In this document: one piece after another, positions 30,476 to 30,524 of the stretch | Layout of the letters: each line of letters begins with the position of its first letter | Numbering within the stretch: the stretch's first letter is position 1 | Assembly: GCA_036630325.1 (NCBI GenBank) | Contig: CP142735.1 | Location: forward strand, 372,001-436,000 | Direction of reading: 5' to 3' | Origin: Vairimorpha necatrix | Taxonomy: Eukaryota | Length of the DNA stretch: 64,000 bases | The notes under the pieces: model-generated | What the model saw: only the letters and a program-made list of their open reading frames with translations | Databases searched by the model: none | Told to the model about the DNA's origin: nothing | Program-made: the position numbers and the translations under genes

Positions 30476-30524
30476 TGTTATATTCTGTAATATGATTGAC
30501 CCCAATTTATGATAAATAAAGACA
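30476..30524 (+). repeat. 5' LTR of SL2 (49 bp)
   Basis: TGTTATATTC...AAAGACA. 48/49 identical to 39595-39643. Confidence 0.92.

Follow-up and report, generated by a model that had tools for sequence, protein, structure and literature searches.

Ty3/gypsy-lineage elements of Vairimorpha necatrix probably keep their start codon and expression signals within long terminal repeats of 48 to 49 bp

A 64,000-nucleotide stretch of Vairimorpha necatrix DNA (GenBank assembly GCA_036630325.1, contig CP142735.1, positions 372,001 to 436,000; hereafter the window) holds three retrotransposon copies, SL1, SL2, and SL3, whose long terminal repeats (LTRs) measure only 48 to 49 bp. They are probably dead copies of a Vairimorpha-type Ty3/gypsy family with a unit of about 3.15 kb, in which these LTRs are complete and contain both the start and the expression signals of the element. 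As far as the sequences go, a CCC promoter and a start codon inside a minimal LTR are well supported, and a near-zero unique 5' (U5) region defined by AATAAA is only plausible. An earlier sequence-only reading of the window had recognized the repeats and their motifs. It overlooked that the ATG in the LTR is more than a motif: judged from frame and protein alignment, it is the gag-pol start codon.

The 49-mer at the 5' end of SL2 has one other copy in the window, with a single mismatch that changes the ATG to ATA in the 3' LTR. A search that allowed up to three mismatches returned two matches, and two or more matches were obtained in 0 of 100 shuffles. Both copies begin with TG and end with CA, and TTTTC lies outside each. 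The sequence just beyond the repeats differs between the two ends. Because the immediate flanks are unrelated, the repeat is not longer than 49 bp, and the limits first drawn for it hold at both ends. A window-wide scan for TG..CA repeat pairs accompanied by a 4- to 6-bp duplication singled out two elements from nine repeat pairs, SL2 and the element nested in it. According to a protein map, the SL2 remnant is frameshifted and divided by three insertions (Table 1); once these are removed, the unit is 3150 nt long.

SL1 is built in the same way. Its 5' LTR was found by local alignment (score, 80; runner-up, 34), and its two LTRs show about four differences, two of which are one-base indels. Minus the single insertion, the unit is 3163 nt long on the protein map. 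The LTR sizes originally read, 48 bp in SL1 and 49 bp in SL2, are correct, since the target site duplication (TSD), the TGG of the putative primer-binding site (PBS), and the polypurine tract (PPT) adjoin the LTRs; the same is true of a relative with 39-bp LTRs, L001. The 5-bp TSDs (TTTTC in SL2 and TTAGA in SL1), the TGG after the 5' LTR, and the PPT before the 3' LTR were all present in both elements as described. The TG..CA bounds stood in both copies of SL2 and in the 5' LTR of SL1 and failed in the 3' LTR of SL1, which today ends in AA, not CA. For SL3, we searched for a complete 5' LTR and found that only the 3' half (about 50013 to 49988) remains. A solo-LTR search of the 64 kb, which the earlier reading had called for, gave none beyond the five known LTR places, the only ones above the shuffle maximum.

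Independent relatives have short LTRs as well. L001 is a metagenome contig whose protein is about 52% identical. Its 39-bp LTRs (540 to 578 and 3664 to 3702) differ by one mismatch, and it has the TSD TTATA, TGGCACCC, and a PPT, with TGGCACCCAGTC after the 5' LTR and AAGGCGGGGA before the 3' LTR. L037, a contig in a bacterial metagenome-assembled genome (MAG), holds an intact element of 3364 nt whose two 58-bp LTRs are identical. A frame of 1088 codons opens at the ATG of the LTR/PBS junction and ends 15 nt into the 3' LTR; because the frame runs from the junction into the 3' LTR, about 97% of L037 is coding. The tract before its 3' LTR, GCGGCGGCA, is not purely purine. L002, L031, and L033 each offer one LTR end with the same layout, and their LTR length is uncertain. 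We looked for a second copy of the L031 LTR in G001, the MAG that contains it, and found only the known one; no relatives were found in viral contigs. Other gypsy lineages from the same sources have LTRs of 109, about 176, and about 200 bp, and their frame also begins in the 5' LTR.

Two such MAGs bear the titles Clostridium sp. and Turicibacter sp. and gave 47 and 17 gypsy contig matches, respectively, which are eukaryotic and microsporidian-like. The contigs are L031/L035, L037, L041, L043, and L045 (G001) and L033 and L036 (G002). Such eukaryotic-type gypsy contigs in bacterial MAGs are likely to be binning contamination.

We considered whether the short repeats could be eroded stumps of longer LTRs, or chance matches, in an ordinary gypsy element. 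Longer LTRs do exist: the other gypsy elements of the window have LTRs of 109 and about 200 bp, and one Anncaliia algerae consensus, in the available part of its description (PMC4202319), has an LTR of about 170 bp, against 39 to 58 bp in the SL family. However, in SL1, SL2, and L001 the TSDs stand directly outside the TG..CA ends and the PBS and PPT directly inside them, and none of the 100 shuffles produced such a repeat. The intact L037 has identical 58-bp LTRs and a frame that overlaps both. Moreover, proteins of about 1015 aa on contigs of 3.1 to 3.3 kb leave only about 50 to 200 nt for everything else. Erosion or chance is therefore highly improbable, and we take the short LTRs to be complete.

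A family search with the SL1 reverse transcriptase (RT)/RNase H piece as the query covered 2735 candidates and gave 58 proteins at the cutoff of E ≤ 1e-3. The best match, 94% identical, lies on a 1.07-Mb contig of V. necatrix, which bears out the microsporidian host proposed at the outset. Other hosts of the family are V. apis, Nosema granulosis, and Enteropsectra breve. Many relatives of about 1015 to 1040 aa occupy contigs of only 3.1 to 3.3 kb, and on these sequences the family is widespread and extremely compact. The Pfam domains follow the order RVT_1, RT_RNaseH, Integrase_H2C2, and rve in the relatives P0003 and P0002, and fragments are found in SL1. By the homology and order of RT, RNase H, and integrase, the SL family belongs to the Ty3/gypsy lineage. 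The zf-CCHC match is weak (E value of 0.003, below Pfam's cutoff), and the pattern C-x2-C-x4-H-x4-C is almost invariant in the family alignment. A structure model, built on a 17-sequence alignment with a mean predicted local distance difference test (pLDDT) score of 68, has a helical region of about 100 residues ahead of this putative zinc knuckle.

The motifs CCCC, ATG, and AATAAA follow in the order first read in the SL1 and SL2 LTRs. They occupy positions 25 to 28, 34 to 36, and 40 to 45 in the SL2 5' LTR and positions 23 to 26, 33 to 35, and 39 to 44 in the SL1 LTR. Across the family, the LTR has TGT..ACA as its integrase ends, CCC(C) at about positions 21 to 28, and the first frame ATG 3 to 19 nt farther on. 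The distance from CCC(C) to the in-frame ATG is 3 to 10 nt in SL1 to SL3 and 18 nt in L037. CCC..ATG occurs together with A[AT]TAAA in SL1, SL2, SL3, L001, L037, and the nested element. Among random 45-mers of the window, CCC followed by ATG within 12 nt was found in 4.6%, A[AT]TAAA in 12.4%, and both in 0.4%. TGG directly follows the 5' LTR in SL1, SL2, SL3, L001, and L037, and the PBS sequence is of the type TGGCGAACAC, TGGGGGCCC, TGGAGCGATACC, TGGCACCCAGTC, or TGGTGGAGAAC. The PPT is GGAGGGGGA or GGAGGGAGGA in SL1 to SL3 and GGCGGGGA in L001 and L002.

The N termini of related proteins locate the start of the frame. P0003, a 1017-aa protein on a 3141-nt contig, begins with MINKDMANTRNK. When its residues 1 to 17 are aligned by tblastn, they match SL2 with 88% identity, and residue 1 falls at 30509, which is position 34 of the LTR. 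Across the LTR/PBS border, marked here by a slash, SL2 reads ATG ATA AAT AAA GAC A/TG GCG AAC ACA AGA AAC. From the 25 best matches, we selected by eye 15 N termini as full length. Nine of the 15 have the form M-x4-5-M-[A/G], and four begin directly with M-[A/G]. P0025 begins with MVEN, resembling the junction ATG of L037, and P0013 fits neither pattern (1/15). The second M is preceded in every case by D, Y, or H, residues with NAY codons, which is consistent with an LTR that ends in ..ACA and is followed by TGG. In SL3, the sole ATG is the one inside the LTR, and it is in frame with gag. On this comparison, the gag-pol frame starts inside the 5' LTR or at its last base. Because the frame begins in the LTR or at the junction ATG, which combines the terminal A of the LTR with TG of the PBS, the PBS is translated. 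There is a precedent in Ty1 of yeast, whose Gag is translated from a start codon in the 5' LTR and whose PBS is part of the coding sequence. The Ty1 LTR is about 330 bp long with distinct unique 3' (U3), repeat (R), and U5 regions, and the entire SL LTR is shorter than the R-U5 of Ty1.

At the other end of the element, the frames of SL1 and SL2 stop 26 to 30 nt short of the 3' LTR. On the strength of the matching L031 translation, we infer that the C termini of P0004, P0010, P0019, P0023, and P0025 are read through a conserved box and the PPT into the 3' LTR. This box, GAGACTA(A/C)CCGTCT(T/G)G, runs into the PPT and is kept in six of seven aligned 3' ends, either after the stop codon or within the frame. 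It may fold into a small hairpin (AGAC/GTCT) or may extend the PPT signal. No covarying pairs were found in the box. Because its stem AGAC/GTCT is invariant, the hairpin is neither supported nor rejected.

Translation might instead start at the junction ATG; the ATG inside the LTR would then be incidental, and any site past the CCC could serve as the transcription start. The four full N termini that begin directly with M-[A/G] are in line with such a start, P0025 and L037 use the junction ATG, and in L001, where the ATG within the LTR is out of frame, only the junction ATG fits. However, an in-frame ATG 5 to 6 codons upstream is kept in 9 of the 15 N termini, and SL3 has the internal ATG only. 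The CCCC of SL2 lies 5 nt before the internal ATG, which suits a 5' untranslated region (UTR) of <7 nt. A general start at the junction is thus an unlikely alternative to a start codon within the LTR.

The proposed expression signals resemble those of microsporidian genes. In Encephalitozoon cuniculi, according to the available part of a study by rapid amplification of cDNA ends (PMC2803860), 5' UTRs are <7 nt, a CCC-like motif lies just before the ATG, an AAATTT-like element lies farther upstream, and AAUAAA is near the stop codon. SL elements share the CCC-like motif before the ATG and the AAUAAA near the stop. Unlike in the genes of that study, the signals are packed in the LTR, where the limits of U3 and R must depend on them as well. 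An AAATTT-like element can be made out in L037 and the nested element, whereas in SL2 it is not clear. Within the window, both intact IS1595-type transposase open reading frames (ORFs) have ..AATTTTTTA(A)CCCC followed after 2 to 3 nt by ATG, and both have TAAATAAA or TAGAATAAA (AATAAA) at the stop. Since 2/2 of these ORFs show the layout, host promoter and 3' signals are in use in the window. The microsporidian-style promoter suggested by the earlier reading is therefore supported both by the published start-site layout and by these ORFs.

We suggest that transcription would start between the CCC and the ATG, as in microsporidian genes with a 5' UTR of <7 nt. In this scenario, U3 would be about 25 to 32 nt long, and R and U5 together would be at most about 16 to 22 nt. 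The LTR AATAAA may serve as the 3' signal, being the first canonical poly(A) signal past the stop codon in SL1, SL2, and L037. Since only 4 nt lie between this AATAAA and the LTR end in SL1 and SL2, cleavage would fall in flanking DNA and U5 would be about zero. A near-zero U5 should not hinder strand transfer, for which only R near the 3' end would be needed, and minus-strand transfer would take place on about 10 to 20 nt of homology. L001, L002, L037, and the nested element have AATAAA upstream of CCC; they would represent a "signal in U3" layout with a still shorter R. The earlier proposal of a near-zero U5 and a very short R thus remains plausible in length, with R plus U5 at most about 22 nt, and is weakened by an AATAAA that varies in position and is also coding.

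Several observations weigh against such compressed but functional LTRs. SL1, SL2, and SL3 are all dead copies, and we infer the borders of U3, R, and U5 from sequence. The AATAAA of SL1 and SL2 doubles as codons for I-N-K, and AATAAA after the ATG is confined to a subgroup with INK or ENK N termini; most N termini (e.g., EINVH, NINVH, KIDIH, LAKDY, and IRNSH) cannot encode it there. SL3 does have the CCCC and ATG that were first described in it, together with ATTAAA upstream of the CCCC and no AATAAA. Because the position of AATAAA is not conserved and SL3 has only ATTAAA, its role as a poly(A) signal is unproven. The candidate LTR of L033 is without CCC. The flanks of L037, AATAC and GTTTG, are not a TSD, which may come from an assembly that joined copies. 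There were no tRNA genes for comparison with the PBS in the window or in three loci, and the PBS stays putative. Finally, no Pfam RVP (aspartic protease) match was found in P0003, P0002, or L037, and because no protease was detected, the full autonomy of the SL family is uncertain. As for Tf1-type self-priming, a look by eye, with no formal test, revealed no stretch of the LTR complementary to the PBS.

The region in which a protease would be expected to lie is short. From the CCHC knuckle to the RT motif WRNPIR, there are only 124 to 201 residues (P0002 and P0003 plus 11 relatives), and just 1 of the 13 sequences has D[ST]G in this interval. This stretch is modelled as disordered, with pLDDT scores of <50 for residues 141 to 200 and no beta-rich domain. 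The gag-RT junctions in the window are at about 11900 to 12280 in SL1 and about 31000 to 32400 in SL2. Because no protease was found, the SL family is a variant and not a canonical member of Ty3/gypsy.

A family without a protease could also have true 48- to 49-bp LTRs that lack a working promoter or poly(A) signal. Its copies would then be transcribed by read-through from adjacent genes or transposons and maybe mobilized in trans by a protease-bearing gypsy element, and the motifs would reflect coding and AT-richness. An intact protease-bearing gypsy is indeed present in the same window, the three dead copies lie within a transposon nest, and the shifting position of AATAAA would be explained. 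However, in the established scheme of retroviral reverse transcription, regeneration of the LTR requires that the RNA start in the 5' LTR. CCC precedes ATG in separate lineages, far above background, and independent genes in the window are headed by the same CCCC-ATG layout. RT, RNase H, and integrase are encoded by the family itself, and public data contain many intact frames of about 1015 aa. For these reasons, we consider LTRs devoid of signals to be quite improbable, and we favor LTRs that carry their own start and signals.

SL elements share much with the microsporidian Ty3/gypsy elements known from the available parts of earlier reports (Nbr of Nosema bombycis; A. algerae, PMC4202319): microsporidian hosts, a single gag-pol frame, and the RT-RNase H-integrase order, along with a putative CCHC knuckle, TG..CA LTRs, 5-bp TSD, TGG, and PPT. 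They differ from the N. bombycis elements, which are described as having five domains, a protease among them (PMC2474625). Very short LTRs, TG..CA ends, and a 5-bp TSD are also found in the grass elements SMART/FRetro129 and FRetro64 (PMC3281118, in its available part). FRetro129, which a 2012 report named the smallest LTR retrotransposon, is non-autonomous and 292 bp in all, with LTRs of 85 bp; FRetro64 is a Ty1/copia element of 5.2 kb with LTRs of 76/90 bp (PMC3281118). SL LTRs are about half as long as those of the FRetro elements, and SL elements are coding elements of the Ty3/gypsy lineage of about 3.15 kb. Elsewhere, an LTR of 194 bp has been termed "very short" (PMC3701649). By the usual description, LTRs measure some 100 bp or more and have a U3, an R, and a U5 that can be told apart. 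These comparisons of sequence point to a real, unusually compact variant that departs from Ty3/gypsy in LTR length and in the lack of a protease.

We found no published LTR this short; in the papers on very short LTRs that were consulted, the shortest are 76 to 90 bp, though the N. bombycis paper (Xu et al., 2006) and the Parisot tables may list LTR lengths. The priority of the finding is uncertain for that reason. The V. necatrix genome paper nowhere mentions LTRs, PMC7313128 has no LTR-method terms, and PMC3614468 and PMC13174016 give no LTR lengths.

Within an LTR there must be room for the ends recognized by integrase, a promoter, the R that strand transfer requires, and, in most cases, a poly(A) signal. 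If a family works with LTRs of 39 to 58 bp, it would indicate how far these can be squeezed in a host whose promoters span only a few bases. The SL family is a natural system for asking how short R can be and whether an element of the gypsy lineage can dispense with its own protease. Tentatively, and with more reserve than for the SL copies themselves, we suggest that, among LTR retrotransposons with their own RT, RNase H, and integrase, SL-type elements may be the most compact: about 3.15 to 3.4 kb, LTRs of 39 to 58 bp, one frame that runs from the 5' LTR to or into the 3' LTR, no protease, and an R of at most about 20 nt. If this is true, it would set a new lower bound for LTR content, and a widespread microsporidian family would be overlooked systematically by standard finders. 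A minimum LTR of 100 bp is a common setting of such programs (-minlenltr 100, which 128 papers give together with LTR_FINDER), so annotation at this usual setting would not recognize SL elements as LTR retrotransposons, as the earlier reading had anticipated.

Table 1. Coordinates of the SL elements and their parts (window positions; L001, L002, and L031 in their own contigs)
Feature	Position	Strand	Evidence or remark
SL2, whole element	30476-39643	+	49-bp LTRs at both ends
SL2 TSD, left copy, TTTTC	30471-30475	+	Identical to 39644-39648
SL2 5' LTR, 49 bp, TG..CA	30476-30524	+	CCCC 30500-30503, ATG 30509-30511, AATAAA 30515-30520
SL2 putative PBS, TGGCGAACACAAG	30525-30537	+	Codons (M)-A-N-T-R in intact relatives
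SL2 gag-RT-RNase H-integrase remnant	30509-39566	+	tblastn map against P0003 and P0002; ORF list
Insertion 1 in SL2, IS1595/Merlin-like piece	31269-32375	-	Gap in P0003 map; DDE_Tnp_IS1595, E 3.2e-12 for 31432-32046
Insertion 2 in SL2, IS1595/Merlin-like transposon	33449-34656	+	90% identical to 5532-6742; P0003 map
Insertion 3 in SL2, intact unrelated Ty3/gypsy (N109)	35387-39085	+	Identical 109-bp LTRs, TSD ATTAT, Pfam
Conserved box just 5' of SL2 PPT, GAGACTAACCGTCTT	39571-39585	+	Kept in 6/7 aligned 3' ends
SL2 PPT, GGAGGGGGA	39586-39594	+	Adjoins 3' LTR
SL2 3' LTR, 49 bp	39595-39643	+	1 mismatch to 5' LTR
SL2 TSD, right copy, TTTTC	39644-39648	+	Matches left copy
SL1, whole element	11478-15725	+	48-bp LTRs
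SL1 5' LTR, 48 bp	11478-11525	+	TSD TTAGA 11473-11477; TGGGGGCCC / TGGGGGCCCATC directly 3'
IS1595/Merlin-like insertion in SL1	13305-14389	+	Gap in protein map; DDE_Tnp_IS1595, E 3e-14
SL1 3' LTR, 48 bp	15678-15725	+	PPT GGAGGGAGGA 15668-15677; TSD TTAGA 15726-15730
SL3 3' LTR, 49 nt	46748-46796	-	Preceded by GGAGGGGGA; ends TA
SL3 5' LTR remnant, 3' half only	49988-50013	-	ATG 50004-50002 in frame with gag; no second ATG
Box plus PPT, SL2	39571-39594		
Box plus PPT, SL1	15654-15677		
Box plus PPT, SL3	46797-46819	-	
Box plus PPT, L001	3641-3663		
Box plus PPT, L002	~3197-3221		
Box plus PPT, L031	~2699-2723		

Two of the IS1595/Merlin-like insertions, at 13305 to 14389 in SL1 and at 33449 to 34656 in SL2, belong to different families and entered the RNase H region at points about 10 codons apart. 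These points correspond to P0003 residues of about 600 and about 610; either coincidence or a preferred target is possible.

The window as a whole is AT-rich (26 to 40% GC in 2-kb bins) and is a nest of transposons. N109 (35387 to 39085) is nested in the integrase region of SL2, and its 1194-codon frame encodes gag, protease (RVP), RVT_1, RNase H, and integrase. The frame (35392 to 38976) opens within the 5' LTR, continues across the PBS (ATT+TGGCGAGAACGAC), and closes with a TAG that abuts the 3' LTR. The N109 LTR contains AATAAATAAACCCATG. N109 is intact and probably young. A third gypsy lineage lies at 21873 to 25659 on the minus strand, with LTRs of about 200 bp that are 96.5% identical and the TSD ATTAT. 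An ORF of 384 codons begins there at 25528, some 70 nt into the 5' LTR, with no CCC before its ATG. DNA transposons of the Merlin/IS1595 type are found at 16094 to 17313, 41734 to 42956, 5162 to 7582, and 17962 to 18852, with transposase ORFs of 296 to 313 aa; CCCC precedes their ATG by 2 to 3 nt, and AATAAA is found at the stop. They have long C/G homopolymer tracts near their ends, and the copy at 5162 to 7582 is split by another such element.
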